This document shows positions 2,150-41,946 of a stretch of 64,000 nucleotides of DNA, one piece after another (position 1 is the stretch's first letter; every line of letters starts with the position of its first letter). Below the pieces are notes generated by a model. That model saw only the letters and a list, made by a program, of their open reading frames with translations, was not told the DNA's origin and did no database searches. The DNA lies in the NCBI GenBank assembly GCA_963677595.1, contig OY782041.1, forward strand, positions 1,888,001 through 1,952,000, written 5' to 3'. The DNA comes from Spirochaetia bacterium. Lineage in GTDB: Bacteria; Spirochaetota; Spirochaetia; CAKZLE01. A program made the translations under genes and the position numbers.

Positions 2150-2200
2150 TATAGTACTGAAAAAGTCGGGAGATTGCAATATTGATGTTGCAATCTCCCG
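2150..2200 (-). promoter_or_regulatory. Sigma70-like promoter embedded in a 34 bp palindrome
   Basis: CGGGAGATTGCAA-N8-TTGCAATCTCCCG at 2167-2200; on the minus strand TTGCAA-17 bp-TACTAT precedes the AAA gene. Confidence 0.7.
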
Positions 2201-2244
2201 CATATCGTAATCATGGGATCATCAGAAGGGGGAACTGATTGATC

Positions 2245-3579
2245 CTAGAGGGATGCTCCGTTCACATAGAGGGTGAACCCGTTCTCATCGACACTCCCTG
2301 CCCCATCGAGCGAGGTGATATAGGAATCCCCGGTCAAGACCCAGGTACTGGACCCGTCGATGGATACTGCCACACTACCAGCCTGGCCATCTGCATTGAT
2401 CGCCCCGGTGTAGGTCGTCCCATCCTCCAGTGCCAGCTCGAGGGTGGAGATCTCATCCACAATGATCTCCCCGCTAAGCTCCTGGCTTGCTGCCGTGAAG
2501 GTGACATCCCCGCCGTTGGCACCGGCTGTGCCCCAGCCCCGTGCACTCTCATTGCCGACTGCCTTGAGGAGCACTTCGTTGCTGAGTGAGAGGTCTACAT
2601 CCGTAAGCTCGATCGTGCAGGCGGTATTCGTCACATAGATCATGTCCCCGCTGTTGGAGACCAGGCTGCCGCCGGTCATGGTGAAGATGCTCATCCCTTC
2701 GTCGGCATCACCTGACATGCTCTGGTAGATCATGACGTTCTGCACGTTCTCATCTGACTGGCCGCTCATTGTCCCTTCCACATCACAATCCTCGAGGATG
2801 ATCGAGTTCTTCCCTTCGATGACCAGGGCCTCAGACCCGGTCGCTGTCAGGGTCGCATTGCTGACGGTGATCTCCGCGGTACTGTAGACTGCAGGAGAGC
2901 CCTCGCCATGGCTTATGTACTCACCGCCGTCGACGGTCAGGATGCCGCCGCCTCGATCCGTCCTGAGGGCTGCTGAATGGTCCCCGTCGGTCTCGACCGA
3001 TGAGTCTGTCACATACATGGTACCGCCGCCTGCCACCATGACGCCGCCGGAGGAGTTCGCGGTAGTGGTGATATCTGTACCGTTCACATAGACAGTAGAG
3101 TCCCCGTAGGAGAAGATCCCGTTTGAGCCCTCGGAAGTCGTGGTCACGACCGCGTTCTCCAGGGTCACTTCTGCACTATCCATGGCAAGGAGCCCTGCAT
3201 TGAGCCCGTAGAAGTTGCTGTCATCGCCGCTCTCCCCGGCATCCCCCGATTTCGTGATCACAATATCGGAGAGGGTCACGACTGAATCACCCTCGACGCG
3301 GACGGCATTCTCATCTGAGGAGGTGCTGGTGTATTCCACCCCTGCCGCATCTTCGGTGACGAGGTTCGCGTAATCCCCGTGATTGATCTCTCCTCCGCCG
3401 CCCCCGGGAGGGGGAGCCGGCATCGATGAGTCCAGCGTCTCCGTGGTGACGGCAGTCTCACCCTCCGTGATACTGTCGGTAGCCGTTCCTGAGGTGGTGC
3501 TGGTACAGGCAGTGACTGCCAGCAGCAGCATCCCGGTAAGCAGGATCGCAAGGACCCTCTGTATGATCTTCTGTTTCAT
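2245..3579 (-). CDS. Acidic lipoprotein, probable right-handed beta-helix
   Basis: Signal peptide with lipobox (VTA-C), Thr/Pro/Gly linker, repetitive Gly/Asp/Thr-rich beta-strand pattern; GGAGG RBS before MKQKII. Confidence 0.7.
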   Translation of the reverse strand: MKQKIIQRVLAILLTGMLLLAVTACTSTTSGTATDSITEGETAVTTETLDSSMPAPPPGGGGGEINHGDYANLVTEDAAGVEYTSTSSDENAVRVEGDSVVTLSDIVITKSGDAGESGDDSNFYGLNAGLLAMDSAEVTLENAVVTTTSEGSNGIFSYGDSTVYVNGTDITTTANSSGGVMVAGGGTMYVTDSSVETDGDHSAALRTDRGGGILTVDGGEYISHGEGSPAVYSTAEITVSNATLTATGSEALVIEGKNSIILEDCDVEGTMSGQSDENVQNVMIYQSMSGDADEGMSIFTMTGGSLVSNSGDMIYVTNTACTIELTDVDLSLSNEVLLKAVGNESARGWGTAGANGGDVTFTAASQELSGEIIVDEISTLELALEDGTTYTGAINADGQAGSVAVSIDGSSTWVLTGDSYITSLDGAGSVDENGFTLYVNGASL

Positions 3580-3629
3580 GGTTTTCCTCCAATCTCGTTC
3601 ATCTGATATACACATCATGGACCATGCAG

Positions 3630-3645
3630 CTTAACCGAACCTTAA
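3630..3645 (-). promoter_or_regulatory. OmpR-type direct-repeat box, copy 1
   Basis: Minus strand TTAAGGTTCGGTTAAG; matches the copies at 11459 and 11523. Confidence 0.7.
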
Positions 3646-3673
3646 ATCAAAGAAGAATATAAGAACTTTTTCT

Positions 3674-3812
3674 CTTCCGGATGCAGCACGGGGGAGCATC
3701 CCTGCTCCCCCGTATGATCATGATCGGTCTATCCCTAGGTCTGGGACCTGAAGTCCCTTCCTCCGGGGCCCATGCCACCGCTGAACCCGCTTAATGCTGT
3801 GGTTACCCCCGA
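3674..3812. repeat. Left copy of a ~135 bp direct repeat (orphan 3' end of the Cthe_2159-like gene plus terminator)
   Basis: 3681-3812 vs 8062-8193: 14 mismatches in 132 nt by manual count; minus strand reads SGVTTALSGFSGGMGPGGRDFRSQT*. Confidence 0.95.
3688..3713 (-). terminator. GC-rich hairpin, probable terminator (duplicated)
   Basis: ACGGGGGAGCA-TCCC-TGCTCCCCCGT. Confidence 0.7.
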
Positions 3813-3981
3813 ACATGGAGAGTCTATGGAAATCCAAGACTAAAGCTTCTTGAGTCCTGCATTGCACCAATATGATTACTACATGTAAGATATTTCCGAA
3901 ATGAGGTCGAAATACTATTTGAAGCTATGTAGACCCAGATTGTGATTACCAAGATTGTTTTTAAGAATCCGGATTTCGACG

Positions 3982-4010
3982 TTGACTTAAATCAACAACA
4001 CAAGTATGAT
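3982..4010 (+). promoter_or_regulatory. Sigma70 promoter of the Abi gene
   Basis: TTGACT-17 bp-TATGAT. Confidence 0.8.
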
Positions 4011-4016
4011 TTAGTT

Positions 4017-4062
4017 AAGGGATTGAGCTCCGGTAACCTACGGGTCCGGGGCCAAATTTTTT
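4017..4062 (+). ncRNA. Structured leader RNA, candidate RNA antitoxin or attenuator of the Abi gene
   Basis: GCTCCGG/CCGGGGC stem, inner ACC/GGT stem with C(UACG)G tetraloop, then AAATTTTTT; GC-rich within AT-rich DNA. Confidence 0.5.
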
Positions 4063-4724
4063 ATGGGGAGCAACCTGGTGCCAGGGAAGATCTTCACTAC
4101 ACATGCTGAACAGGTTCAAATACTGACCAGCCGAGGTTTAGCCATCTCGGATCATCAAAAAGCTATTCAGATTTTATCACATGAAAATTACTATCGACTC
4201 ATAAATGGGTATAAAGATTTATTCTTAGAAGCAACTAGTCAAACAGAAACATACAAAAGCGGGTCTTCATTAACTGAAATATATGCGCTCTATCGATTCG
4301 ATGAAGAATTAAGAATACAGTTCCTTAGGGCGTTCCTCATCATCGAAAATCAATTGAAGGCTCATATTGCCTATGAATTTGCCAAAGTGCTAGCCGCGTG
4401 TGCTTACTTGGATGCTACAAATTATAATTATATTCCCCAATATCAAAATGATATAAACAAACTCATCAATAAGATTCAAATAACTATACGAGATAAAACC
4501 TCTTTTGATAGACGGTTACAGCATTACCAGAATAATCATCATGGAGCCATTCCTCTATGGGTGATAATAAACCTGCTGACGTTTGGGAACGTGAGTCGTT
4601 TCTATAAATACATGCAACCAAGAGAGCAAAATGAAGTTGCTCGACAATTTGGATTGAGACGTGAGCATCAAACCGCATACACAGTATGCAGGGAGTTGAG
4701 AATCCTCTAACGTAACAGCGGAGG

Positions 4725-5087
4725 ATGAATATGAGACGAATAGAACCATACACGACCGCGGAGCGAGAACAGATTATCGAAGATTATCTGCAATCCGGAC
4801 TCACGGTATTCACCTACTGCAAAAGGCCGGAGGTTACCGTGACAATAACAACGCTCAAGCGTTGGATGAAAGCCCTCAACCGAGATGAGGCACATGAGGT
4901 GGCCGAGCATGGCATAGTTTGTTACCACATTGAAGGAACACAGCCAGATGAGCAGTGTCAACGGTTATCGCTTGAAGAGATGGTCCGGTTTCACCAACAG
5001 GTATATGCATGCTGCTGCACTCTGCAGGCGTTGGCCTGCACACGTGAGAATGTTACGAAAGTAACGTATCTTATGGGGGTCCTGTAA
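4725..5087 (+). CDS. tnpA: IS66 accessory protein TnpA (HTH)
   Basis: IIEDYLQSGLTVFTYCKR...TLKRW HTH pattern; first ORF inside the TIR. Confidence 0.8.
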   Translation: MNMRRIEPYTTAEREQIIEDYLQSGLTVFTYCKRPEVTVTITTLKRWMKALNRDEAHEVAEHGIVCYHIEGTQPDEQCQRLSLEEMVRFHQQVYACCCTLQALACTRENVTKVTYLMGVL

Positions 5088-5455
5088 TGGTGCCATTCGA
5101 CACATCACTGGAAGGAAAGAAGATCTTTCTACGGGTAGGCTCTACCGACTTTCGTCGGGGTGTGCGGGGCATGATCTCCCTGGTGCTGGGGGCAATGGAC
5201 CTGCCTCTGGATGAACAGTCGATCTTTGTATTCTGTTCAACGAGCAGGAAGCAGATCCGGATCGTATACAGTGAAGGAGCCGGGTGCTGGATGTGTACGA
5301 GGGTTATCCGGTATGGGCGGTACCCCTGGCCGAAAGACCGGAATGCAGCAGCCGCAATAACTGCGGATGAGCTCCGCCGACTCATAAGCGATCCAGTCTC
5401 CCTTGATCAGCTGCAGGCACGGAACCAGGTGACCAGGATAGCCCTGCATCTGTGA
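5087..5455 (+). CDS. tnpB: IS66 accessory protein TnpB
   Basis: TDFRRGVRG, IFVFCS..RKQIRIVY..G, GRYPWP; coupled to tnpA by TAATG. Confidence 0.9.
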   Translation: MVPFDTSLEGKKIFLRVGSTDFRRGVRGMISLVLGAMDLPLDEQSIFVFCSTSRKQIRIVYSEGAGCWMCTRVIRYGRYPWPKDRNAAAAITADELRRLISDPVSLDQLQARNQVTRIALHL

Positions 5456-5675
5456 CAGGAAAAAAGAACACAAAATTTTGGACGCTTCTGAACGCCTGTG
5501 GTACGAAGAAACGAGAGGGTATACACGTCTGGGATCAGCTGGGGCAAAAACAGGGCGCACCAGGGGTTCCTGCAAGGCAGACCTCTGACATTGTCCGTGT
5601 TGCAGACCTATGCAACTAGTTGCAATATAATCAATTAGGTTGTTCTTTCTGTGCAATTATGGTATGCTTGTCAGC

Positions 5676-7427
5676 ATGACAGACAAAGAACAGATTGCAT
5701 TGTTGAAGATGCAGGTCTCAGAGTTAAAGAAGGAAAAAGCCCGGTCTGAGAAAGAGCTGAAAGCTGCGAATGCACAGGTTGCAGAATTGACTGAAGATGT
5801 CGAAGTACTCACCCGTGTAGTCCGTTCAGGCAAGGAGAAGCTCCGTCTTGAGCTGTTTCTCAAGTTCGGCAGCTCAAGTGAGAAGTATCGGAAGCTGTTC
5901 AACATCCCGGTAGAACTCCTTGAGAAGCCGGAGAGTGAGCTCAATGACGAGGAGCGGCAGATTGTCGAAGAGGCAAAACAGGCTGTTGATCAGGAGCAAG
6001 AGCCGCCGCGGATGAGGAACCGACATCCGAAACACCGCAAACCCGGTATTGGCGGAGGTCGGCAGACGTTCGATCCGTCCTACCCGCGGGAGCAGCGAGA
6101 ATACCAGCTTGACAAGCTGTGCAGTATCTGCGGTGGTGAGATTCAGGAAATCGAGAATCAGGATGTACACGAACATATTGACGTCATCAAAGAACGGCTG
6201 AAGATTATTCGACAGACCAAGCACAAAGGCTATTGTACCGGTTGTGGTACGGCCTATGACGGGCAGGGAGCGAAGCGCCGGATGATCATGACTGCCAAGG
6301 CTCCTGAGCGGTTTATCCCGGGAGGTCTTGCGGGAGACCGTCTGATTGCTGCCTCTCTGGTTGACAAGTTCTTCTACGGTCTGTCAGTGACCCGAATCGC
6401 AAAACAGTTCAGACAGTTTGGTGTAGCACTCAGTGAGCAGAACTTCTCGAACTGGCACCTGCGTGCCGGTATGGAGCTTGAGCCCATCGCTACGGCCATC
6501 AAGAATGAGATTCTCAGGCAGCCTGCGATCAATGCTGACGAAACACGTCTGCAAGTACTTGATGAGAAGGATCGAGCTGATGAGCTGAAATCCTGGCTGT
6601 GGGTCATCTGCAGTGCGACACCAGATCGGCCGGCTGCCTACTTCCAATATGACCGATCCCGGTCAAGTGATGTGTTCAAGGATATCGTCGATGGATACGA
6701 CGGGTTTGTGCAGGCAGACTGCTATACAGGCTACCAGGCAGAGAAGCAACACTACCAGTATACGCTGGCTCTCTGTATCGCTCATCTTCGGAGGCGGTTC
6801 GTTGATGCACAGAAGGCAGGTGGGTACCAGAGCGGATCCGACGGCCATAGTACGCTGAATAAAATTCTTCGACTGATCGGGCAGATCTACAAAGTCGATG
6901 CTGCTCACCGCGTCCGGTGGCAGGATGAGCAGAGTATCAGTGAACAGCAGTTCCTCAACGATCGAAAAACTGATACCCTGCCGCTGTTTGAAAAACTCTC
7001 CGCCTGGATTACCGGACGGTATGATTTACATACCAATGACAGCTATATCATGGATGGCATGAACTACTACCTCAACCATGAGCAACTGTTCCAGACGTAT
7101 CTCGCATGTGCAAACCTGAATCCAGACAACTCGAGAAGTGAGCGCATTATCAGAGCATTCTCAACAGTCCGCATGAACTCCCTGTTCGCCGGTTCGGTTA
7201 CCGGTGCGAAGGCGCTGGCAACCCTGGAGAGTATCATCCAGACGGCTAATCTCTGGGACCTGGACCTGTATGGCTATATGGACTACCTGCTCAAACAGGT
7301 AACCCGTATTCGCGATCTGCCAGTACAGGCGGTAGATTTCACAACCTTCCTCCCATGGAATCTGCCGCTTGACCTGAAAGAAGAATTGGCAGTGAAAACC
7401 ATTACGGTCAAGAAGCAGCGGGAATAG
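5676..7427 (+). CDS. tnpC: IS66 DDE transposase TnpC
   Basis: Coiled coil, FGSSSEK, CxxC zinc finger, ADETRLQVL, QADCY, CIAHLRRRF, DNSRSERIIR, LPWN. Confidence 0.95.
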   Translation: MTDKEQIALLKMQVSELKKEKARSEKELKAANAQVAELTEDVEVLTRVVRSGKEKLRLELFLKFGSSSEKYRKLFNIPVELLEKPESELNDEERQIVEEAKQAVDQEQEPPRMRNRHPKHRKPGIGGGRQTFDPSYPREQREYQLDKLCSICGGEIQEIENQDVHEHIDVIKERLKIIRQTKHKGYCTGCGTAYDGQGAKRRMIMTAKAPERFIPGGLAGDRLIAASLVDKFFYGLSVTRIAKQFRQFGVALSEQNFSNWHLRAGMELEPIATAIKNEILRQPAINADETRLQVLDEKDRADELKSWLWVICSATPDRPAAYFQYDRSRSSDVFKDIVDGYDGFVQADCYTGYQAEKQHYQYTLALCIAHLRRRFVDAQKAGGYQSGSDGHSTLNKILRLIGQIYKVDAAHRVRWQDEQSISEQQFLNDRKTDTLPLFEKLSAWITGRYDLHTNDSYIMDGMNYYLNHEQLFQTYLACANLNPDNSRSERIIRAFSTVRMNSLFAGSVTGAKALATLESIIQTANLWDLDLYGYMDYLLKQVTRIRDLPVQAVDFTTFLPWNLPLDLKEELAVKTITVKKQRE

Positions 7428-8054
7428 TAGGCTCCCAGAAGATCATCACCATAGTCCCAACCATTGGTTCGTGTCCTGCTAGGTGTGGCAGGATACGGTA
7501 ATGGCTGTATCTTCACCTCGCAGATTATAGCATCTCTTTGATTGTGTCTTCAGTGTATGCGGTTTGATGCTCACATTGAGACCTAATTACCTGAATAATT
7601 ATCTAAGAATTATCACTCTTGCTAGAAATATTTGTGCACATGCTGAGCGATTCTTTAGTTTCAGATCTAATACAGAACTTAATATCTTGCCTGAGCATTC
7701 ATCATTATCTATCCCGATGCAAAACGGGAAGCCTGTCATGGGTGTTAAGGATATGTTTGCTGTACTACTTATGGTGAAATATCTTCTTAGAGATGCTGGT
7801 ATATTTGACTCTTTGAAAAGGGAAATCGCGAATTCACTAGACAAACTGGATACAGAACTCACTAGCATATCAATTCAAGAAGTCAAACAAATGATGGGAT
7901 TCCCCAGTAACTGGGAAGCAATGTAATTCCATCCGTATTGAAATAAGCTCTCACTCGCAACCAATTGATCCAGTTTGCTATCAACAAACACATTTCTTGA
8001 GTTTTCTCTTGAATAAAGCAAATAACATAATACAACATATAAAATTCATTGCCC

Positions 8055-8193
8055 CTTCCAAATGCAGTACGGGGGAGCATCCCTGCTCCCCCGTATGATC
8101 ATGATCGGACTACCCCTAGGTCTGGGACCTGAAGCCCCTCCCTCCAGGGCCCATGCCCCCGCCGAAACCGCTTGCTGCCGTGGTCACCCCGGA
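8055..8193. repeat. Right copy of the direct repeat (functional gene end plus terminator hairpin 8069-8094)
   Basis: Encodes SGVTTAASGFGGGMGPGGRGFRSQT* and the same hairpin as 3688-3713. Confidence 0.95.
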
Positions 8194-9888
8194 CTCGTTG
8201 AGCCAGGTGGTAGTCCCGGAAGCGGTGAAGGTGACGGTCTCTGACGAGTCCGTGACGATACTGTAAGCATCATCCTCATCAAGCCCCGGGAGGCTGAACA
8301 GTACTGCCTGGAACCGTGTCTCGGGGGTCACCGAGGCCAGGACGGTGCCGTCGCTGTCAATAAGCTCCACTACCGTTCCTGCAGCAAGGGTGGAGGAGTA
8401 GGTCATCTGGACCGAGTACTGGGTCGAGCTGTCTGACGGTGTCTGGATCATGCCGGTACTGCCAGCGGTGATGAGCGTTCCCCCGCTGATCTCGAAGGTC
8501 CCGTTGTAGTCGAGTGAGCCGTTCCCGCTGCCCGTAGGGCCGTAGACGGTCACCGTCCCGCCGGTCATGATGACCGAACCATTGGAGTCGAGCCCATCGC
8601 CCTCTGCGGTGACTGTCAAGGTCCCGCCGGTGATCTGGAGCAGGTAGTCCCCTGCCTCATCTGATGGCATGCCCCGGCCGAAGCTGCCGGCACTCTCCGT
8701 CCCGCCTGCGGCATTGAGCCCGTCATCGGAGGTGACCAGGTCGATGTTCCCGCCGTTGATGTAGATAGCCTGACTCTCAAGCCCCTCATACGCCTGGGCG
8801 ATGGTGATCTCCCCGTCGTTGATCACAAGGGTCTCATCTGCGTGGATCCCGTCGTCGGTGGTCACGATATAAAAGGTGCCGCCGTCGACCTGGACTGAAG
8901 TATCGCTGTGGATGGCATCATCCGAGGCGTAGATGGTCAGTTCCCCTCCTGTGATGCTTATGTCATTATTGGCTTTCAATCCCTTCTGGTCGATGGAGCT
9001 GCTGTAGGTCCCTGACCCGGTTACGATGGTGATTTCCCCGTCGGTGATGAGCATGGACCCTTCAGCCTGGAGGGCATCACCTGCTGCCTGCAGGGTGAGG
9101 GTACCGCCCTCTATCGCGATATACCCTTCTTCCCCGGCTTCCTCATTGGTTGCCTTCAGGGCATCCCCGTAGGCGGTCACTGCCACATTGCCGTCCCTGA
9201 TGACGATCGAGTCCTTCCCGACGATGCCGTCATCGGCAGAGAGGATGGTGATGTTTCCACTCATGACCGTCACGTCGTCCTTTCCCTGGATGCCGTTGTC
9301 CCGGTTCGCCGTGACAAGAAGCGAACCTGAACCTGAGATGGTCAGGTCATCTTTACTGTAGATGACAGCTGCCCCTTCCTCATTGCCTGTCCCTGAGTCA
9401 ACGTCCTGCAGGCTGTTCTCCGATCCGTCGGCAAGGTAGAGGATCACCTTGTCCGCCTGCTCCACCTCTATGGCGGCAGCACCAGTGCTCGTGATATCGA
9501 CGCCGTCGAGGATGAGGATGACATCATCCTCTGAAGTCGCGTTGACCACTACCTGGCCGTCTGAGATGGTCCCTGACAGCAGGTAGACACCTGCTTCGCT
9601 GATCTCGACTGATTCGTTATCAAGGGTGATGGTATAGTCCGCATCCGCTTCGGTATACTCTGCCAGGTCCTTCTTGCTGTAGTCGAAGACCTCCTCTGCA
9701 GAGAGGGAGGAGACTCCTTCTGCTGTCGTCACTGCAGCAGTAGTGTTGGTTGTCACAGCTGTGACCGTAGATGTCGATGAGTCCAGCTCAGGGGCTGTCT
9801 CTTTGCTGCCCAACCCGAAGATGAGGCCTGTGGTGATCATGATGAGTATGATCAGTATGGGTAAGATCTTGTTCCGTATGGTTTTCAT
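8116..9888 (-). CDS. Carbohydrate-binding domain protein (Cthe_2159-like beta-helix)
   Basis: Signal/anchor; YLLSGTISDGQVVV, IYSKDDLTISGSGSL, repeated GG..I...DDGI, DGLDSNG, LDYNG motifs. Confidence 0.85.
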   Translation of the reverse strand: MKTIRNKILPILIILIMITTGLIFGLGSKETAPELDSSTSTVTAVTTNTTAAVTTAEGVSSLSAEEVFDYSKKDLAEYTEADADYTITLDNESVEISEAGVYLLSGTISDGQVVVNATSEDDVILILDGVDITSTGAAAIEVEQADKVILYLADGSENSLQDVDSGTGNEEGAAVIYSKDDLTISGSGSLLVTANRDNGIQGKDDVTVMSGNITILSADDGIVGKDSIVIRDGNVAVTAYGDALKATNEEAGEEGYIAIEGGTLTLQAAGDALQAEGSMLITDGEITIVTGSGTYSSSIDQKGLKANNDISITGGELTIYASDDAIHSDTSVQVDGGTFYIVTTDDGIHADETLVINDGEITIAQAYEGLESQAIYINGGNIDLVTSDDGLNAAGGTESAGSFGRGMPSDEAGDYLLQITGGTLTVTAEGDGLDSNGSVIMTGGTVTVYGPTGSGNGSLDYNGTFEISGGTLITAGSTGMIQTPSDSSTQYSVQMTYSSTLAAGTVVELIDSDGTVLASVTPETRFQAVLFSLPGLDEDDAYSIVTDSSETVTFTASGTTTWLNESGVTTAASGFGGGMGPGGRGFRSQT

Positions 9889-9916
9889 GGTAATGCTCCT
9901 TGTTTCCGTTCTTCTT

Positions 9917-10609: not shown

Positions 10610-10611
10610 GA

Positions 10612-11406: not shown

Positions 11407-11458
11407 GTTCGGCCTCCTGGTAGTTCCGGTTGAACTGACTCTAATAAACAGCTTCAAG

Positions 11459-12306: not shown

Positions 12307-12307
12307 C

Positions 12308-19502: not shown

Positions 19503-19598
19503 AATATCCTCTTACAGCCATGATACCGCAGGACCCGGCAGAAAGCCAGTACTGGTATTCCGGGAGAACACTTTTGTGAACCGGAGAACTTGAGATGA

Positions 19599-19703
19599 AA
19601 AAGTGTCTGGAAATCTAGACAAAAACAGAAAAATTGTAAAAGTGTCTGGAAAATTAGACAAAATACGAAAAATTGTGAGAGTGTCTGGAATGTTAGACAA
19701 AAA
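19599..19703. repeat. 3 x 39 bp tandem array with palindromic core
   Basis: AGTGTCTGGAA recurs at 19602, 19641 and 19680; core TGTCT-N8-AGACA in each unit. Confidence 0.9.
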
Positions 19704-19751
19704 CCACAGAGAATCAATCCAAGTTCCCTATACATAACTTGAAATAGCTTT

Positions 19752-21500
19752 CTACGGATTTCTCACCACCCAGCAGTACTTCAGCTCCGTCTTGGGGAAA
19801 GAATCCGGGGACCTCCCGTTATCAAGGTAGAAGACCCAGGCTTCCGTGCTGTCTGCCGCACTGGAGGTAGAGGTCCACCAGAACTTCTCTTCAGGGACTT
19901 CGGTGGAGAAGCTGGTCGCGATGTACGCATCATTGGAGCTGACCCCGTAGGAGGGGAGCGAGAGCATCTCGTTTCTGTTGGGCAGTCTCCAGTCGGAGTA
20001 TCCTGCATACTCGAGCGAAGCTGCATAGGTGAGGGCATCATCCCAGTTCACAGGTGCCGGGTACGGGTCCTGCTTCCACTGCAGCCCGGTGAGGGCATCG
20101 TAGACCGTGCCGCCGGTGATGAGGAACCGCGGGGAAGGCCATGGAACCCCGAACCGGAGGTAGCCGTCATCCCCCTGGTTGACATAGGTGTACCGTCCTG
20201 TCCTCGGCAGCGAACTAGTGCCGGCTGATGCTTCACGTACCAGGATGATCATGGCGAACGAACCATAGTTCGATACGTTCTGCCTGAAGAACTTCCCGCT
20301 CCCGAGGTTCACGACATAGGCCCAGCCGCTCGTCGAGTATGAGCCGTAGCTCATGGTGGAGCTCCAGTACTCGTCATTCCTCACACCGGAGAACCCGTCA
20401 TGGCTGTTGAGCCATGAGGCCGTGCTCGACTGCCCTGCATGGACGAGGCTGTACAGCTCCCTGACATTCGGCAAGTGCCAATCATCGTAGCCGCAGTAAC
20501 TCTCATCATTCCTGGCTGTCAGGTAGTTCGTTGTTGCATACCTCCACTCGTAACCGCTTGCATAATAGGGCGGGGCTCCCTGCCACATCAGGCCTGTGAG
20601 GTTGTCGGTGACCGTCCCGTCCTCGTGGTCGGTGAACCTCGGTTCCGGCCATGCGGTCCCCGTCTCCAGGTCCCCGTCATCACCGGCAAGCTGGCTGTCA
20701 GTCTCCCCCGTCTTCGGGATCGATACTGCCGGTGCTGCGATGGTGACGGTCATGTTGGTATTGCTCGCCGTCGCAGATGAGTCATGGTAGGGGATGGTCA
20801 GGATCACCCCGTAGCTGCCGGGAACCGAAGAGCCGACGGTGAAGGAGAACGAGGTCGTCTCGGCAGGCTTGAGCTGTGTCTCATCGGGAAATCCCGTGAT
20901 CGTAAAGGCTGATCCCCCAGGCCCGGTGAACCGTACCAGAGGGGTCCCATCGAGGGTCATCAGGGCACTGCCGTGATTCTTGATCGTGTACTCGTAGTGC
21001 ATCTCAAGGTCTAAATATCCTGTTCCGAGGTCCTTGGAGGCATAGATCTGGTCAATGCAGTCGGCATCCTCGAAGAGTGCGAGGAGCGCGTTCCCGTTCT
21101 GGGAGAGGTAGAAGTCATCGGGGTAGTCGAAGGCTGCTTCCACCTCCCCGTCGACCTCGCTCTCGTAGATCCCGACCGTCTCGTAGTCGACCCCGCCTAT
21201 GGGGTCGCCGCCCGAGTCGTCGGTATCGATGAAGCCGTCGATGGAGATGTCAGTCCCCCCGGTGAAGGTCCTCCCCCCATCGACACTGATGGTCGTGACC
21301 CCTGCGGTGAGGGGTGCCGACCCGGTGACCGGCGGATCCTCCCCCTCGACGGTCACTGTATACCGGAAGGGGCTCCCGATGAGGGATTCCCCTCCCCGTA
21401 TCACGATGGTGATACTGCCATCCTGCGGCGAGAAGAGCGGGCAGCCTGAAAGGAGCATCAGAACTGCACTCAGCACCAGGGCCTTCAGCAGGTTTTTCAT
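19752..21500 (-). CDS. Lipoprotein with Ig-like region and two DUF1566 (Lcl C-terminal) domains
   Basis: LSG-C lipobox; GTVTDNLTGLMW / DALTGLQW, DWHLPN..EL / DWRLPN..E, YWSST / WWTST. Confidence 0.85.
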   Translation of the reverse strand: MKNLLKALVLSAVLMLLSGCPLFSPQDGSITIVIRGGESLIGSPFRYTVTVEGEDPPVTGSAPLTAGVTTISVDGGRTFTGGTDISIDGFIDTDDSGGDPIGGVDYETVGIYESEVDGEVEAAFDYPDDFYLSQNGNALLALFEDADCIDQIYASKDLGTGYLDLEMHYEYTIKNHGSALMTLDGTPLVRFTGPGGSAFTITGFPDETQLKPAETTSFSFTVGSSVPGSYGVILTIPYHDSSATASNTNMTVTIAAPAVSIPKTGETDSQLAGDDGDLETGTAWPEPRFTDHEDGTVTDNLTGLMWQGAPPYYASGYEWRYATTNYLTARNDESYCGYDDWHLPNVRELYSLVHAGQSSTASWLNSHDGFSGVRNDEYWSSTMSYGSYSTSGWAYVVNLGSGKFFRQNVSNYGSFAMIILVREASAGTSSLPRTGRYTYVNQGDDGYLRFGVPWPSPRFLITGGTVYDALTGLQWKQDPYPAPVNWDDALTYAASLEYAGYSDWRLPNRNEMLSLPSYGVSSNDAYIATSFSTEVPEEKFWWTSTSSAADSTEAWVFYLDNGRSPDSFPKTELKYCWVVRNP

Positions 21501-22495: not shown

Positions 22496-22634
22496 GTTTG
22501 CAGATTCAGTTTTTTACTTTTCGCCCCAATAATTCAATAATTATCTATTGGGTTTCGAGGAGTCAGTCTCAGTCATGATGAGGGATCCTAAGGTGGTAAA
22601 AGCTGATGGGTATCCAGGTTTTGTATGGTCCATG

Positions 22635-22724
22635 ATTTCCTTGTGACAGGGAAAGAATTCTTGTGATATTTCCCTGTGAGAGGGAAACAATTGAATTGAT
22701 ATTTCCTTGTGACAAGGAAAGAAT
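22635..22724. repeat. 3 x 33 bp tandem array with palindromic core
   Basis: ATTTCCYTGTGASARGGAAASAAT at 22635, 22668 and 22701; copy 3 is the perfect TTTCCTTGT-G-ACAAGGAAA. Confidence 0.9.
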
Positions 22725-23056
22725 CGAAAGATACCCTCTACCGGTACTTAGGATACCTGACGGAGACCGGGTTCTTCTCCCTGGAGAATGCCGTGTACAC
22801 CTGCCTGAGGCAAGGGTCTGCCGCCCCGGTGTATTTCAACAACGGTTCAGCCGAAGTGGATTTCATCACTGAGACAGCACTGGTCCAGGTGTGTGATACG
22901 GTTGACCCCGATACGATAGGGCGGGAACTACAAGGGTTCACTGCCTTCGGACAGCAGTATGGTGACCGGTTGGCAAGAGTCCTGGTGTATATAGACTCCG
23001 ACGGGGAGGATCATGAAGGGATGGTTCCCGTATATGATTTCCTTGCCGGAACCTGA
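22724..23056 (+). pseudogene. Deleted remnant of an AAA_14/DUF4143 gene
   Basis: wHTH-like SKDTLYRYLGYL joined to LENAVY..YF..EVDF..LVQVC; no Walker A/B motifs. Confidence 0.7.
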
Positions 23057-32119: not shown

Positions 32120-32137
32120 AAATATAGTTATTACTCA

Positions 32138-32166: not shown

Positions 32167-32184
32167 TATTAGGAGTGCAATGGT

Positions 32185-32646
32185 ATGAAAAATCTATTAC
32201 GTATAATAGATGCTATTGGAGGGATCTGTATTGGTGCCCTGTTTTTTTTAGTTCTGTTTCAGGTGCTGGCACGAATTGTATTTCAGATACCGACCTCTTG
32301 GTCTGTTGAGTTAGGGAGGATCCTCTTCCTGGCTGTTGTATTTATCGGATCAGCATATCTTTTTTATTCAGATGGGCATATGGTCATTAAAGCAGTCTAT
32401 GAACACCTCCATGGAAAGACGTTAAGGACTGTGGATCTTATTAATAACACATTGCTGTTGATAGGGTTGGCTGTTTTTCTGATCGGGGCAATAAGAAAGG
32501 CAATCTCGAATTGGGGCATAGTTATCCCGACTCTGGAATGGATGACAAACGGATATATGTACTTGATTGTCTTTATTGGCGGATTAGGAATGTTCTTTTT
32601 TGTTGCGCGTAAATTTGTAAGTATTTTACGGGGTGATGTATTATGA
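32185..32646 (+). CDS. dctQ: TRAP small permease
   Basis: Four TM helices, QVLAR, WSVEL. Confidence 0.85.
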   Translation: MKNLLRIIDAIGGICIGALFFLVLFQVLARIVFQIPTSWSVELGRILFLAVVFIGSAYLFYSDGHMVIKAVYEHLHGKTLRTVDLINNTLLLIGLAVFLIGAIRKAISNWGIVIPTLEWMTNGYMYLIVFIGGLGMFFFVARKFVSILRGDVL

Positions 32647-33938: not shown

Positions 33939-33966
33939 CAAACAAGATAATATTAAGGAGATACTT

Positions 33967-35022: not shown

Positions 35023-35054
35023 GAACTGTTTGGGACATAAAAAAAGAAGGGCTT

Positions 35055-35900: not shown

Positions 35901-36109
35901 AGCAAAAATGTCAGAACTCACATGTACTGACCCTGGGAGAATCTGCCTGCCAGATTATAGCGCATCTCAACAAAGATATCCTTGGTGAACAGATACCTGT
36001 CAGGGTTAATTGGTAAGTGGTATTCTGGGTTCAGAGGATGGGATACTGTCTTGATAAAACCTATTGACCGAGATGAATCTATAAAGTTACTTGCTCTAAA
36101 TCCAGTACA

Positions 36110-36310
36110 AAGAAGGCCTCAGGTGATGTTGCAGGACATGATTCAGCGATGATCGCGGCTGTCGAGCGCATCGCCGATTCGGTCGATATCATCCTGCTTG
36201 CCCAGATCTCGCTTGATGGGATCAAGCCTGGACTGGCCTCTCCCATCAGGGAGAAGACCCGGTCCTCCCTCGACTTCCTGTCGGAGACCGTAACCTCACT
36301 GGGGCTGTGA
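36110..36310 (+). pseudogene. C-terminal remnant of an Asp/Glu racemase-like gene
   Basis: GDVAGHDSAMIAAVERIADSVDIILLAQISL...GL*; in-frame stop at 36074 with no ATG before the conserved segment; coincides with the GC transition. Confidence 0.6.
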
Positions 36311-36495
36311 CCCAGCACTGTAGTCGGAGCCTCAACAATATCTCACAGTAACTTAACAGGATTTCACTTTATCATTGCCCTCTTGCCGGTATACAATACC
36401 AGGTGGAGAGTGCAGCTCATCATCCCCGTATGTTCTCCCGGTTATCATATCCGTACCGGCTCTTCGCTATCTCACGAGTAAGAGGAGAGAGATCA

Positions 36496-37467
36496 ATGAA
36501 ACTGACATTCACCTTGAAGGGTAGGCAGCTGTTTACCTATGTCCTGATCATCCTGGTCCTCGGAGCCCTCCCGATGGTGGTCTTCGCCGGGCTGAACGAC
36601 TGGAGTTACCCGATCCCCTTCGTGGACGAGTCCGGTATCTTCATGCTCTTTCTCGGCCTCTATGAGGTGATCCTCCTGACTGTCATCATGATCCAGGCAG
36701 TACGGCTGGTGGTCGGGCACCTGCGATTCGGGGATGATGGATTCTCCTTCGAAGGTGATACCCTCAGTTTCCTCTGGCTCATGATCTACGGATCTGTATT
36801 GAGTGCCGTGACGATCGGGATCTATGTCCCCTGGTTCGTGAAGAAGGTGAACACCTACTTCATCGAGAACACCCGTCTCGGGGCACGGACCTTTACTTTC
36901 AATGGAGAGCCGAAACAGATCATCTGGAAGTATATCGGGTTCGTCATCCTCATGGCTGGCGTTACCGGGCTGGTTACCCGTATCCTGGGGCCGGACAGCG
37001 TCCAGGAGCCCATGACTGGTGCGGAACGGATGTTCTCCAACATCGTCTCCTCGATCGTCTCGGTCCCCCTGGTCTACCTCTTCCTCAAGTGGACCCTCCA
37101 GATATCCTACCATGAGTTGAAGCTGCAGCAGCAGTTCGAGACCAGGGGCTCCATGTGGATCCTTCTGAGGAACATGGTGCTCACCAATATTACCTTCGGG
37201 CTCTTCGGCCCCTTCGCCCAGTTCAGCTGGTATGCCTACTTCGCTGAGCGGGTTTCCTTCCAGAGTGATAAAGAATCATACCACTTCAGGATCTCAGGGG
37301 AGAAAGCAGACGTCTATAAGCTCATCCTGCGGGAGTTCCTGCTGACCATCATTACCCTGGGAATCTACGGGGCCTGGGCATTCTGCCATGTGGTCGAGGC
37401 TGTCCTCGACCATACGGAGATCAGCAGGGAAGAAGGGACGGCAGCAGAAGCTCTCCCACCGGTGTAA
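36496..37467 (+). CDS. DUF898 (YjgN-like) membrane protein
   Basis: Repeated F.F.G...(I/V)T.G(I/L)Y.PW units. Confidence 0.8.
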   Translation: MKLTFTLKGRQLFTYVLIILVLGALPMVVFAGLNDWSYPIPFVDESGIFMLFLGLYEVILLTVIMIQAVRLVVGHLRFGDDGFSFEGDTLSFLWLMIYGSVLSAVTIGIYVPWFVKKVNTYFIENTRLGARTFTFNGEPKQIIWKYIGFVILMAGVTGLVTRILGPDSVQEPMTGAERMFSNIVSSIVSVPLVYLFLKWTLQISYHELKLQQQFETRGSMWILLRNMVLTNITFGLFGPFAQFSWYAYFAERVSFQSDKESYHFRISGEKADVYKLILREFLLTIITLGIYGAWAFCHVVEAVLDHTEISREEGTAAEALPPV

Positions 37468-37522
37468 GGAGATTGCATAATCCTTCCAGAGTTGGTAAGA
37501 CTAAGGACAGGAAGGAAGGAGT

Positions 37523-38821
37523 ATGAACAACCCACTGCCGGACAGGCTGGCACGACAGTACAGTACCGAACTCATGAAAGAGATGGATCATCACCACTGC
37601 CTCGATTTCGAGACAACCCGTACAGTCTCGACTGCCCCGCTCTTCAGACCTGGAGGCGGGCAGATGTTCGGGGTACTCGTATGCGAGGACCCCGAAGGGC
37701 ATGAGGTGATCCTGAAAGCCTTCTCCGGGCAGTATGAGGGAACGTGGATGATTCCCGGCTGGGTCCCCCCTGTCTGTGATGTACGTGAGTTCAGTGCCGT
37801 CATCTCCCATAACGACAGGGAGATCCACCGGCTTACAGACCCGATCATGACCGCAGATGAGAAGACAGCTTCAGCCCTCATCGAGAGGAGGAAGGCCCTC
37901 TCGCAGGAGAGCCTGAAGCGGGTCTACGGGCTCTATGCGTTCCGCTGCATAGACGGCAGCACCATCACCCTGCAGGATGTCTTCGGCGGCCGTCTCCCCC
38001 CGACCGGCACCGGCGACTGCTGTGGGCCGAAACTGCTGAACCATGCCTTTAAGGAAGGTCTACAGCCAAAAAGTATGGCTGAGTTCTACTTTGGGGCATC
38101 GAATAGCGCTGGAACGAGAGAACATGGAGCTTTCTATGGACCCTGCGACGACCGGTGCCGGCCGCTGCTGAAACAGATGCTTATGCTTGATATCATCTAC
38201 TGTGACGAGACTCTCATCGTGGTGAACAAGCCCTCAGGTCTCCTATCGGTCCCCGGGAGGGAGGTCTTCGACTGTGCGGAAGCACGGGTGAAGCGGCTCT
38301 TTCCTGATACGATCAAGCAGCCGGCTGTCCATCGGCTCGATATGGATACCTCGGGGCTCATCGTCTATGCCCTGACGAGGGAGGCCCATCGGGATCTCTC
38401 CATCCAGTTCATGAACAGGCAGGTGAAGAAGACCTATACGGCACTTCTTGAAGGGATCATCACCGAAGAATCCGGCAGGATAGAACTGCCGTTTCGTCTT
38501 GATGTCGATAACCGTCCCTACCAGATCTATGATCCCCTCCAGGGGAAGCTGGGGATCACTGAATGGAGGAGGGTCTCTGTGGAGTACTTCAAGCCGGGAA
38601 GACCTGCCACCAGGATCGAATTCACTCCCCTGACAGGCAGGACCCACCAGCTGCGGGTGCACAGTGCCCATGATCTGGGGTTGGGCCACCCGATCATTGG
38701 GGACAAGCTCTATGGGAGAGAAGAGCCCGGACAAAGGCTGCTGCTCCATGCGGACATGCTCTCCTTTCTTCACCCGGAGAGCGGGGAACGTCTGACCTTC
38801 GAGTTACCGCCCGAATTCTAG
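37523..38821 (+). CDS. RluA family pseudouridine synthase with N-terminal extension
   Basis: NKPSGLLSVPG, HRLDMDTSG, TGRTHQLRVH, GDKLYG, LLLHA; N-terminal GQMFGVL / DCCGPKLL. Confidence 0.9.
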   Translation: MNNPLPDRLARQYSTELMKEMDHHHCLDFETTRTVSTAPLFRPGGGQMFGVLVCEDPEGHEVILKAFSGQYEGTWMIPGWVPPVCDVREFSAVISHNDREIHRLTDPIMTADEKTASALIERRKALSQESLKRVYGLYAFRCIDGSTITLQDVFGGRLPPTGTGDCCGPKLLNHAFKEGLQPKSMAEFYFGASNSAGTREHGAFYGPCDDRCRPLLKQMLMLDIIYCDETLIVVNKPSGLLSVPGREVFDCAEARVKRLFPDTIKQPAVHRLDMDTSGLIVYALTREAHRDLSIQFMNRQVKKTYTALLEGIITEESGRIELPFRLDVDNRPYQIYDPLQGKLGITEWRRVSVEYFKPGRPATRIEFTPLTGRTHQLRVHSAHDLGLGHPIIGDKLYGREEPGQRLLLHADMLSFLHPESGERLTFELPPEF

Positions 38822-38826
38822 AGTCC

Positions 38827-38869
38827 CAGAAGCTGAATCAAAGATTCAGAAGCTGAATTAAAGATTCAG
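38827..38869. repeat. 20 bp tandem duplication at a convergent gene junction
   Basis: CAGAAGCTGAATCAAAGATT followed by CAGAAGCTGAATTAAAGATT. Confidence 0.8.
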
Positions 38870-39547
38870 CAACCAGTCCATGAGCGGGCGCATCTGGACA
38901 GCTGCCCCAAAGCAGGTATCAAGCAATTCTCTGCGGTAAAGCAAGTCATGCCCTATGGGGATGCCCATACCCAGCCCGGTATGACGCAGCAGGGACTCCC
39001 TGGGATGGTCCTTGTCATAACCCCTGGGGACTCGCTTGTAGTGCGGGTCCTCCATGAGTCCCAGTTCACCTTGGCCTAGCTCATCGAGGATCGATACGAG
39101 TGAGGTGCCTCTTTGCTTGTTGTCTACAGCCTCCCGGTAGAGCGGCAGCAGCTCCTTGGGGAAGATGTGCTGCCCGCCGTAGAAGAAGCTCTGCTGTGCG
39201 TCGATGTGGAAGTAGAAGATCGGCTGCTCTACCTTCTTACCCTCCCGTAAGGGGAACATGATCCCGAGGTTCTCCTTGTAGGGCTTCTTGTCGGGGGAGA
39301 ACCGGATGTCGCGGTAGATGCGCATCAGGGAACCCGAACCGTTCGTCTGGGTTCCCCATGAGAGGGTCGGGTACTCCTTGATAAGCTTTCTCCCCAAATC
39401 TATGATGAACCGTCTTGACGGCTCGAGGACTGCTCCCTCATAGGTCGGGCGGTGGGAATTGAACCATTCCCGGTCGTTATGGATCGTAAGGTCCCGAAAG
39501 AACTGTACCGTCTCTTCGGAGAACCCGGTGAACTCCTCGTTACTCAT
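38858..39547 (-). CDS. DUF2461 protein
   Basis: NDREWF, RIYRDIRFSPDK.PYK, KRVPRGY. Confidence 0.9.
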   Translation of the reverse strand: MSNEEFTGFSEETVQFFRDLTIHNDREWFNSHRPTYEGAVLEPSRRFIIDLGRKLIKEYPTLSWGTQTNGSGSLMRIYRDIRFSPDKKPYKENLGIMFPLREGKKVEQPIFYFHIDAQQSFFYGGQHIFPKELLPLYREAVDNKQRGTSLVSILDELGQGELGLMEDPHYKRVPRGYDKDHPRESLLRHTGLGMGIPIGHDLLYRRELLDTCFGAAVQMRPLMDWLLNL

Positions 39548-39596
39548 TGCATGCTCCTGAACTTACTCTACTATGGCAGCAATCCGGTGACAATAC

Positions 39597-40670
39597 CTAG
39601 ATCTCGTCGCTGCCTATCTCCAGGGACCAGATCGTCCCGCCGTCGATGCTGCAGCGCAGCAGGTGGGCCGGGATCTTCTCCCCGGATTTCACCGGCCCGC
39701 TGGGGATGTAGATGTAGTAGGGGTCCTCTTCCAAGCGTGACTTCTCATCGAACCCATCGGTCTTCAGGTCATTGGCGATGATGATATCGACATACATGAC
39801 TTCGTTATCGGGATAGATCCCCTCAAGGACACAGAGCACGGTGGCCTCTGTGCCATCTGCATTGCACCTGATGACCCTGCCCCCGGTGTTGATGTAAAGC
39901 TTCCCATCGTACATGGTGATGCCGGTACAGCCGTAGTCTATCTCTTCCTGGGTGATCCCGGAACTGCCGGTGAAGAGATAGGTTTGCCCACTGGTTGGAG
40001 GGTCCTCTGATGCAAGATCTATGGTCTGGAACCCGAAGTATTCGTCGCTGACGACATAGAGCAGGTAGGTTGTCTCGTCATAGAACATGTCAATATACCC
40101 GCCGGAATCGTCAGTCAGGTACTGTAGGGTCCAGCCGTTCTCATTATTGAATGCACCGGTATTGTGTGTGGGGGTATCGAACGGGGAGAGGAAGATAGCA
40201 TTCTCCTCCCGATCGGCGACCACCAGGCGTTTAAAACGGGGTTCCAGCTCCTCTCCTACCTGGAACTCAGGCACGATGATCACATTCACCGGTTGGGTGC
40301 CAACGGAATAGTTCTCCATCTCGGTGCGCCAGTCCCCGGCCCCCTGGATCCCGTACTGGAAGATCTTCCCGCTGTTCGGGTCGCAGATCCAGATCTCATG
40401 GGTATCAGGGTCATAGACCAGGCCGTGGGGCAGGTCGAAGGTGGGGAAGTCCTCGGGGCTTATGTCTTCCCCTTGAGCTATCGTCGTTACCTTGTGGCTC
40501 TCCGGTGCACTGATGTAGAGGATGCCATCATGGGCATCCATCCCGAAGAAGTAGGAGGGGCCGAATGCATCGTCATCGCCGCCGCCGAGGAACTTCGAGA
40601 TGAGGTCGCAGCCAGTGAATGTGAGGGTGATGATGACCAATAAGAGGATTACGGTTCGTGAGGTTCTCAT
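39597..40670 (-). CDS. Hypothetical lipoprotein, possibly beta-propeller
   Basis: FTG-C lipobox after MRTSRT; NHL-like PHGLVYD and VVADRE segments. Confidence 0.65.
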   Translation of the reverse strand: MRTSRTVILLLVIITLTFTGCDLISKFLGGGDDDAFGPSYFFGMDAHDGILYISAPESHKVTTIAQGEDISPEDFPTFDLPHGLVYDPDTHEIWICDPNSGKIFQYGIQGAGDWRTEMENYSVGTQPVNVIIVPEFQVGEELEPRFKRLVVADREENAIFLSPFDTPTHNTGAFNNENGWTLQYLTDDSGGYIDMFYDETTYLLYVVSDEYFGFQTIDLASEDPPTSGQTYLFTGSSGITQEEIDYGCTGITMYDGKLYINTGGRVIRCNADGTEATVLCVLEGIYPDNEVMYVDIIIANDLKTDGFDEKSRLEEDPYYIYIPSGPVKSGEKIPAHLLRCSIDGGTIWSLEIGSDEI

Positions 40671-40725
40671 AGGTGACTCCTTTGTGTCAGGTCTCGCAGG
40701 TCCAAAGAAGTATGGGATCAGTATA

Positions 40726-41868
40726 TCACAGGTTGCCCGACCACAACAGGTTGAGGAAGGAAGAGTGATGAAGGCAATGGATACCGTCGTCCGTGGTGCG
40801 GTCCAGGGGGTCAAGAGAGACGAGGTAGAAGGAGGAGAAGAGGCCCTCCTCCTGCAGGGCCCGCAGGCCCTTCAGGTGCTTCTTCGTTACCTTCCTTGAA
40901 GCTTTCACCTCGATCGCGGCCTGAGTCCCGATGAGGAAGTCCACTTCCATCCCTGTCCTGGTTCTCCAGTACCGCAGCGGCAGTCTGTTCCTGCTGTAGG
41001 AGATCCAGGCACGCAGTTCCATGGCAATGAACTGCTCGAAGGCCTTGCCATATTCACTCGAATCAGGCTGGAGTTGATGGTTGGACCGTAGGAAGTTCGC
41101 TACACCGGTATCGAAGAAGTAGAACTTCGGGGTCGCGACGGCTTTCCGCTTCTCTGATTCCTGCCAGCTCTCGAGGAAGAAGCCGAGGAAGGTATCTTCA
41201 AGGATGGAAAAATAAGAACGGACCGTACTGGCGGGAACCCCGGAATCACTGGCTATGTTCGCGAAATTCACTTGCTCTGTGTTGGCCTGACTGGCAGCCC
41301 TGAGGAACCGGTTAAACTGTACCTGCCGCTGTACCAGGGCCTCTGCCTGGATCTCCTCTCGCAGGTAGGTGTTGATATAGGCATCAAGCTCCTCCTCCGG
41401 TTCCCTGCTGGTATAGACCTGGGGTAAGCCTCCATACTGCAGGTAGCGTTCCAGGTCGAATGAGTCTATCTCATGTGAAGTGAGGGGGAAGAGGTTTGCC
41501 TGCCATGCCCTCCCTGCAAGGAGGTTCACTCCTGAACGCTTGAGCTTCCTGGCACTGGATCCGGTAAGGATGAAATGGGCATCAGTGGACTCTATCAGGT
41601 CGTGGATCTCATCTAGGAGTGCAGGGATCTTCTGGATCTCGTCTATGATGATGAGGGTGCCGGCTTCCAACTGGTCCCTGACAATATCCTGCAGCAGTGA
41701 CGGGTTCTCTGAGAGTGGGAGGTAGACCATGCTCGAGAGCAGGTTGATGATCTCCAGTTCAGGGAACTGTGTCTTCAGCAGTGTGGTCTTCCCGGTGCTG
41801 CGCGGCCCGAAGAGGAAGAAGGACTTATGCCCTGCCAGCTCTCTCATATCAAGGGTTCGTTGGTACAT
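40726..41868 (-). CDS. AAA_14 ATPase with DUF4143/PD-(D/E)xK C-terminus
   Basis: GPRSTGKT, IIDEIQK, LTGSS, LAGR, PKFYFFDTG, FEQF, EVDF..IEVK. Confidence 0.9.
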   Translation of the reverse strand: MYQRTLDMRELAGHKSFFLFGPRSTGKTTLLKTQFPELEIINLLSSMVYLPLSENPSLLQDIVRDQLEAGTLIIIDEIQKIPALLDEIHDLIESTDAHFILTGSSARKLKRSGVNLLAGRAWQANLFPLTSHEIDSFDLERYLQYGGLPQVYTSREPEEELDAYINTYLREEIQAEALVQRQVQFNRFLRAASQANTEQVNFANIASDSGVPASTVRSYFSILEDTFLGFFLESWQESEKRKAVATPKFYFFDTGVANFLRSNHQLQPDSSEYGKAFEQFIAMELRAWISYSRNRLPLRYWRTRTGMEVDFLIGTQAAIEVKASRKVTKKHLKGLRALQEEGLFSSFYLVSLDPLDRTTDDGIHCLHHSSFLNLLWSGNL

Positions 41869-41874
41869 ATCTCT

Positions 41875-41946
41875 AGTGTAAGACTGAAATGGTGAAATTC
41901 AACAGTCACTCTGCTGATTTTTATGCAAAATCAGCAGAGTGACTGT
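41875..41946 (-). promoter_or_regulatory. 45 bp palindrome abutting the AAA gene promoter
   Basis: ACAGTCACTCTGCTGATTTT-N5-AAAATCAGCAGAGTGACTGT (41902-41946); minus strand TTGAAT-16 bp-TACACT, 6 nt before the ATG. Confidence 0.75.

Follow-up and report, generated by a model that had tools for sequence, protein, structure and literature searches.

The DNA analyzed here, a stretch of 64,000 nucleotides from a Spirochaetia bacterium (contig OY782041.1, positions 1,888,001 to 1,952,000; hereafter the window), carries three loci of PDC-S01, a family in which an AAA_14 ATPase is followed by a DUF4143 domain in one single-gene protein. Genes A and C are whole, gene B is a fragment, and a palindrome or an array of palindromes stands before each of them (Table 1). 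PDC-S01 (COG1373), described as an ATPase fused to a PD-(D/E)xK domain, has been counted as the fourth commonest defense candidate across prokaryotes (PMC12988326) and as the most frequent single locus in rumen genomes (PMC12988326, PMC13356809), and its function has been given as "unknown" (PMC3424549). The family is thus very common, yet it has no known substrate or trigger.

Genes A and C match both AAA_14 (PF13173) and DUF4143 (PF13635), and the PADLOC model of PDC-S01 recognizes all three genes, with E-values of 1.7e-91 for A, 8.7e-62 for C, and 3e-10 for B (PDLC04787). No NCBIfam family scored above its cut-off. The Walker A and B and PD-(D/E)xK residues are conserved in A and C (G26/K27, D76/E77, E308-D310, and E320-K322), and the clade of gene B has mostly Q-x-small at the nuclease motif. 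Gene B gave no Pfam match in the profile search and matches the paralog profile at 2e-5. It corresponds to residues 1-5, 270-289, and 326-415 of a 415-aa PDC-S01 protein, with 109 of 115 residues identical; the ATPase domain and most of the winged helix-turn-helix (wHTH) are deleted. Both deletions are in frame and leave the recognition helix and nuclease domain, and gene B may encode a mini-protein. No methyltransferase was found among the genes neighboring A, B, or C.

No perfect inverted repeat of the window is longer than palindromes A (perfect 13-bp arms, 8-nt loop) and C (41902-41946, perfect 20-bp arms, 5-nt loop); in eight block-shuffles the longest arm was at most 11. An earlier note on this DNA had described palindrome A as containing the -35 box of its gene, and the predicted -35 does lie in the right arm. 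The same note had treated palindrome C as one hairpin; its perfect arms stand, and the structure resolves into two 17-bp dyads 32 bp apart. Before gene B, the note's three palindromic units of 33 bp are present (2.7 copies, 22635-22724), but the gene starts at a GTG inside the third dyad rather than at 22724. A second strain differs over 22587-22702 of this array, according to contigs of run X1, and a more distant full-length relative (L218) has a similar dyad over its own promoter. Pairwise, motifs A, B, and C share only zero or one 7-mer, in agreement with the note's remark that they have no sequence in common. The -35 and -10 boxes of A and C are consensus readings by eye and were not among the promoters listed by an automated scan.

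Table 1. Features of the three PDC-S01 loci and of the gene-less array, in window coordinates
Feature	Position	Strand	Basis
Gene A, intact PDC-S01 protein, 392 aa (AAA_14, wHTH, DUF4143 nuclease), clade IVa of this analysis	955..2133	-	profile matches
Operator-like dyad of gene A, outer half-site GGAGAT; predicted -35 within right arm; terminator-like on - strand	2167..2200	.	
Predicted promoter of gene A: -35 TTGCAA 2179-2174, -10 TACTAT 2156-2151; Shine-Dalgarno 2144-2140	2151..2179	-	read from sequence
Three 19-bp dyads (22636, 22669, 22702), 33-bp period; third dyad spans GTG start of gene B	22636..22720	.	
Gene B remnant, 115 aa, frame open	22709..23056	+	
Gene C, intact PDC-S01 protein, 380 aa, clade IVb of this analysis	40726..41868	-	
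Gene C promoter-proximal 17-bp dyad, overlaps predicted -35	41900..41916	.	
Gene C distal 17-bp dyad, 32 bp from proximal dyad	41932..41948	.	
Predicted leaderless promoter of gene C: -35 TTGAAT 41902-41897, -10 TACACT 41880-41875, 6 nt before ATG	41875..41902	-	read from sequence
Gene-less array, 39-bp period, three dyads (19603, 19642, 19681), type seen upstream of a clade III PDC-S01 gene elsewhere	19596..19702	.	

Upstream repeats are a property of the family beyond the window. The genome (G000) holds 53 DUF4143 matches, which we treated as PDC-S01 paralogs, and each was scored for its best direct or inverted repeat within 150 bp upstream, with starts set by rule. Controls were 1957 genes from a simple gene caller with at least 50 bp of intergenic DNA. 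Repeats of at least 20 bits lie upstream of 33 of the 53 paralogs versus 132 of the controls (p 3e-24), and at 15 bits the counts are 45/53 and 545/1957. Among GC-matched controls, 46 of 907 reach 20 bits, and divergent-only controls agree too. Outside this genome, in homologue sets that span many phyla and viral contigs, repeats precede 151 of 299 homologues versus 25 of 369 neighboring open reading frames (ORFs), and 63 of 199 homologues when the 23-bp clade described below is left out. The enrichment that the earlier note had proposed to look for is therefore present; its claim that every such locus has a palindrome holds for the three loci of the window and overstates the case genome-wide, given the count at 20 bits. 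By the look of their N-termini, the high-scoring controls include self-regulating transcription factors, insertion sequence (IS) ends, terminators, a Fic gene, and an AlbA_2 gene. Phased arrays stand before Fic-like (40 bp), XRE-like (41 bp), and AlbA_2-like genes (G000:C1 1068675-1069840, 2899869-2900292, and 2983705-2985054; labels by eye).

The spacing of the repeats follows the protein clades, as drawn from a quick tree of the 53 paralogs. Specifically, the best period is 31-34 bp in 12 of 13 members of a clade of 430-466 aa, 23 bp in 7/7 members of a 420-aa clade, and 39-41 bp in 9 members, some low-scoring, of an 11-member 400-aa clade; members of a 385-aa group mostly have a single dyad or a pair of them. 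For clade II, 110 distinct proteins were scored, of which 92 had a best period of 23 and 13 one of 46 (105/110 together); their repeats are direct and non-palindromic, in arrays that reach 5-6 copies. Furthermore, site and protein go together across genomes. In a test that took in only homologues of at least 60% identity, the upstream region of a homologue's own nearest G000 paralog ranked first of 53 for 15 of 17 homologues at 70% identity or above, and for 19 of 33 at 60-70%. Within G000 the motifs are essentially private: except for a single downstream copy and a few matches of the shortest patterns, they recur no more often than chance would give; the pattern of motif A has two 3-mismatch matches elsewhere in the genome, and its reversed control has 0. 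The paralogs are old (nearest identity at most 64%, median 43%), and a search of 401 genomes gave no homologue of A with more than 53% identity. Taken together, the enrichment, the clade-specific spacing, and the cognate picks support the earlier note's suggestion that each paralog has a cognate DNA site, and they indicate that this site is co-inherited with the protein.

The proteins offer candidate readers for these sites. An alignment-based model of gene C (pLDDT 95.7) has an AAA+ domain at about 1-177, a wHTH with helices at 202-209 and 213-225 and a wing at 229-251, and a PD-(D/E)xK domain at 271-376; together with the Pfam matches of A and C, this bears out the architecture that the earlier note had given. 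The nearest solved folds are 2QEN (Z 14.9, root-mean-square deviation [rmsd] 3.2, 240 aligned) and 2FNA (Z 14.0, rmsd 3.5, 240 aligned), followed by NLR/Avs STAND proteins, MuB/TnsC, and Cdc6/Orc1. The homodimer prediction scored 0.18. For clade II, 88 non-redundant loci gave 78 well-aligned rows, for which we computed corrected mutual information over 424 x 23 residue-base pairs. The strongest pairs link residue 251, near the start of the recognition helix, to bases 11-13 and residues 343/344, in the turn (hairpin) before the catalytic E-x-D strand of the nuclease, to bases 1-4. K251 occurs with GG (24/26), D251 with CCG (6/7), P251 with AA (6/7), and N251 with C (7/8), and K343 occurs with CC (45/48). 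Each rule is found in more than one lineage, and tests on independent pairs, using a tree without the 251/343-type columns, never pointed in the opposite direction. For clade IVb, that of gene C, an alignment-free analysis of 89 rows ranks S214 and R304, the equivalents of 251 and 343 as matched by eye, first and seventh among 380 columns. In gene A's clade, as judged by eye, the sequence of the nuclease hairpin also sorts with the outer half-site. The nuclease domain seems to take part in site recognition as a second reading head beside the wHTH, and it likely touches the operator, because the hairpin beside its catalytic strand covaries with the site. The earlier idea that each motif diverges with the wHTH helix holds clearly in the 23-bp clade, at residue 251, and weakly in that of gene C; the nuclease hairpin, too, covaries with part of the site.

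We consider it likely, judging from these patterns, that each PDC-S01 protein binds its own array and represses its own promoter, holding a conditional nuclease low. A dyad or repeat overlaps the gene's own predicted promoter at a fixed position, as in autoregulatory operators of the C-box or toxin-antitoxin type, and the palindromes and arrays would be double-stranded DNA operators bound by the protein of the same gene. Each protomer would read a half-site of two parts, one by the beginning of the wHTH recognition helix and the other by the hairpin that precedes the nuclease catalytic strand. The constant spacing (23 bp head-to-tail; 31-34 or 39-41 bp; or a single dyad on the -35) would reflect the way the protomers of a clade pack on DNA. 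Binding would block RNA polymerase. Such repression, aided by an often leaderless mRNA, could keep a potentially lethal nuclease low after horizontal entry, and private operators would let about 50 paralogs coexist without cross-talk. The least supported step is the one in which the STAND-like ATPase would act as a switch that activates the nuclease upon infection or a foreign-DNA cue. That the biological role is anti-phage or anti-element defense seems to us about an even bet.

Several observations weigh against this reading or parts of it. Upstream repeats stay below 20 bits in 20 of the 53 paralogs and below 15 bits in 8, dyad A passes as an intrinsic terminator, and the cognate ranking partly reflects plain common descent. 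The independent-pair tests have 3-7 pairs each, with five p values of 0.125-0.5 and only K343 reaching a median p of 0.03, and the residue states were selected post hoc from the table. The clade IVb signal is weak (r about 0.1): its strongest window, 264-273, has r 0.13 against a permutation maximum of 0.107, the recognition-helix window falls outside the top 14, and a control based on unique k-mers reaches at most 0.105. In clade III, 24/29 have Q-x-(A/C/S/T) in place of E-x-K, so its members may not cut DNA. As regards defense, we surveyed 123 neighbors of 78 clade IVb loci, a subset capped in size; 10 match PADLOC models other than PDC-S01, most of them for generic domains, another 9 belong to PDC-S01 themselves, and 2 are methylase-like. 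One PDC-S01 gene was challenged with T4, T5, and T7 in E. coli B and was not among the four protective systems (10.1101/2024.09.26.614923). Our results suggest that phage tests of PDC-S01 should carry the native upstream array.

An unlikely variant on the same evidence is that the array serves as a dock, a DNA antitoxin that keeps the protein inactive, rather than chiefly as a transcriptional operator. If the dock were lost, through phage-driven degradation of host DNA, through DNA-mimic proteins, or with the locus itself, an active ATPase-nuclease would be freed and lead to abortive infection or addiction, a sequel that we likewise regard as doubtful. A dock is compatible with repression as a side effect, and it would suit the covariation of the site with the nuclease hairpin beside the catalytic strand, the STAND-like fold, the lack of a linked partner gene, methylase, or antitoxin, and arrays whose 5-6 copies exceed what is needed to block a promoter. 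Yet two to six sites can hold few molecules, and the final copy of an array is anchored to the -35 or -10, which fits transcription control. Strong addiction is disfavored because gene B has decayed and a clade III gene appears to have been lost beside its array. More broadly, and as a speculation we would not favor, PDC-S01 could be a one-gene, DNA-tethered immune switch, parked inactive on a private array that is read by the winged helix and the nuclease domain. Its release and activation through destruction or loss of the array DNA, or through competition from phage DNA mimics, is to our minds just as tentative. If true, the operator would be both repressor site and antitoxin, and a modular residue-to-base code would let dozens of orthogonal units coexist per genome.

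Mobility is a further consideration, and the gene-less array of the window, which the earlier note had overlooked, is relevant to it. The paired dyad of this array recurs in one other genome among 401, in three places, two of them directly upstream of an intact clade III gene and one before a truncated start. Run X1 contigs indicate two strains, one of which leaves the window at 19664 into 30 letters resembling the -10 and start of the clade III gene and rejoins at 19762; the second strain also differs at the 3' end of the Lcl_C gene (near 19596-19762). A protein 76% identical to the clade III gene was found, and the nearest G000 copy is at 57%. The simplest reading of these sequences is that a clade III gene was lost beside its array. 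At the locus of an 81% orthologue of gene C (L091), that gene is followed directly by the glycerophosphodiester genes. In the window these lie at a distance of about 21 kb, which marks the part with gene B and the orphan array as a variable region.

Operator and gene might instead constitute a selfish mobile unit, whose protein binds the array as the end or attachment site of an element and acts on it by cutting or recombination, with bracketed genes and orphan arrays as the traces; we judge this quite improbable. It would account for the orphan array and for the second strain's divergence there into a matching gene start, and it is in keeping with closest folds in the Cdc6/TnsC/MuB lineage and with members on viral contigs (46 and 34 loci), among which a scan with protein A alone as query gave no match. 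A second copy of the array lies just downstream of 4 clear and 2 possible cases among 343 genes; downstream copies reach 19 bits in 16 of the 343, most of them being other repeats. Two paralogs are bracketed by near-identical copies of their own arrays, L351 over 52 bp with 1 mismatch and L352 over 56 bp (G000:C1 1753190-1754715 and 1098589-1100072, respectively). The contig of L351 has a depth of 88 versus about 50 nearby in run X1, where depth is not a copy number. At L351:11416-11466, run X1 contigs with two other contexts connect to the upstream border of the clade III operator, which suggests that the array there marks a module boundary or occurs elsewhere. A downstream repeat at L113 was rejected as an operator copy, being a dispersed repeat. 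Most genes, however, have no downstream copy, the old paralogs include no near-identical copies of the kind an active IS leaves, and run X1 contigs revealed no empty-site joint at the one bracketed gene looked at. Gene C keeps its upstream neighbor in the 81% orthologue and paralogs are at most 64% identical, so the unit is not an active IS, and we reject a classical IS or transposon on the same grounds and on the scarcity of downstream copies (4-6/343). The visible vehicle is another: L007 and L083 (G006) are PDC-S01 genes flanked by about 125-bp attC-like repeats (by eye) and appear to be integron cassettes with a promoter and operator of their own.

The palindromes might instead work as RNA hairpins, either ordinary terminators, as at A, or small antitoxin or guide RNAs, a branch that the earlier note had kept open and that we now think very improbable. 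All three motifs fold well as RNA (z -5.6 to -8.8), and dyad A, a GC-rich 13-bp stem with a T-rich tail 45 nt past a co-directional stop, is terminator-like and may have a second role of that kind, as the note had cautioned. Dyad C, sited between divergent genes, does not qualify as a terminator, in line with the note's own doubt. In relatives of gene A (41-53% identity), GGAGAT..ATCTCC is kept at the same offset to the -35 with the inner arms unpaired (7 clear and 2 one-sided among 34); of 30 scored dyads, 18 are located at +3 to +4.5 and 8 at -16 to -17.5, spanning the promoter. The 81% orthologue of gene C keeps both dyads and loses the central pairing, and the folding energy of the stem changes from -40.7 to -22.3 kcal/mol. 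Across the relatives of A and C we found no conserved base pairing; half-sites and position are kept instead. Of the 53 paralogs, 19 have a leaderless-type -10 box 5-8 nt ahead of the start, against 138 of 1957 controls; among homologues the count is 84 of 304. Many transcripts therefore probably lack a leader, with the repeats upstream of the predicted transcription start and outside the RNA. Since half-sites and position are conserved and pairing is not, the motifs behave as double-stranded DNA sites. In addition, the 23-bp direct repeats of 105 of the 110 clade II loci are unable to pair, and Rfam gave no match for the palindromes. Hairpin RNA is thus largely refuted for the family, and we reject it.

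It is barely conceivable that the arrays are iteron- or origin recognition box (ORB)-like replication origins and the protein a Cdc6-like initiator, given the AAA+ and wHTH domains, a Cdc6/Orc1 fold match (Z 10.1, rmsd 7.5, 230 aligned), the iteron-like 23-bp repeats, and the gene-adjacent, diverse cognate boxes reported for haloarchaeal orc/cdc6 genes (PMC3528665), and we reject it because 53 copies lie on one bacterial chromosome, the nuclease is fused, and the sites are locked to promoter boxes.

The predicted autorepression resembles that of known regulators, and PDC-S01 is not a member of either system in question. In type II restriction-modification, C (controller) proteins have palindromic boxes on their own promoters, as predicted by phylogenetic footprinting, and their mRNAs are frequently leaderless (PMC2632904); natural fusions of C protein and restriction endonuclease also provide a nuclease-fused regulator that acts on its own promoter (PMC3850674), as is predicted here. 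Unlike C proteins, PDC-S01 would carry its reader as a wHTH inside an AAA+/STAND protein, with no linked methylase, a nuclease domain that appears to share in recognition, and direct repeats in some clades. AbiEi and Rv2827c, of type IV toxin-antitoxin systems, show negative autoregulation of a defense locus with cooperative binding to promoter inverted repeats (PMC7319586), which is likewise what we predict. AbiE has two genes, whereas regulator and effector of PDC-S01 would be one polypeptide with an ATPase switch. The best fold matches are archaeal STAND-like ATPases, SSO1545 (2FNA) and PAB2304 (2QEN), but these matches span residues 1-262 only and leave the nuclease domain outside. With Cdc6/Orc1 and its ORB boxes, the likeness is one of fold only. 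No operator, spacing rule, or recognition code for PDC-S01, COG1373, or AAA_14-DUF4143 appeared in the passages of freely accessible papers that the search covered (PMC3424549, PMC12988326, PMC13356809, PMC8195603, 10.1101/2024.01.29.577857, 10.64898/2026.10.19.760177, 10.1101/2024.09.26.614923), and no DNA-bound structure of the family was found. New here are the test on 53 paralogs, the multi-clade spacing rule, the residue-level rules, in which the nuclease domain would provide a second reading head, and the likely strain-level loss of a gene at an orphan array.

These predictions have practical implications. Each member now has a predicted DNA ligand, which opens the family to direct biochemistry, for use in binding and cleavage assays and as a substrate for cryo-electron microscopy. 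Specificity swaps can be predicted from the residue-to-base rules, and synthetic biology could draw on dozens of orthogonal repressor-operator pairs per genome. More generally, STAND ATPases have been traced to Cdc6/Orc-related transposon ATPases (PMC8195603), and because the family lies in the Cdc6/STAND lineage, a DNA-bound structure would bear on the origin of STAND immune ATPases from DNA-binding ancestors.

Some further features were recorded along the way. Two more arrays lie on G000:C1, one with a 31-bp period after an ATPase_2/DUF234-type gene (2288681-2288756) and an orphan 33-bp array (4022365-4022440; labels by eye). Within the window, an Abi_2 gene (4063-4710) is followed by a complete IS66 (4725-7427) and then by a 120-aa ORF (7564-7926), which may be the C-terminal part of the IS-interrupted Abi_2 abortive-infection gene. 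A 20-bp tandem/inverted repeat between convergent genes (38813-38869) and a 14-bp-arm inverted repeat between sugar-transport genes (53352-53395) are probably terminators or elements like repetitive extragenic palindromes. Finally, the same gene stands at both ends of the contig (G000:C1 9562-11808 and 4323057-4325303), which is probably an untrimmed circular overlap of the assembly.

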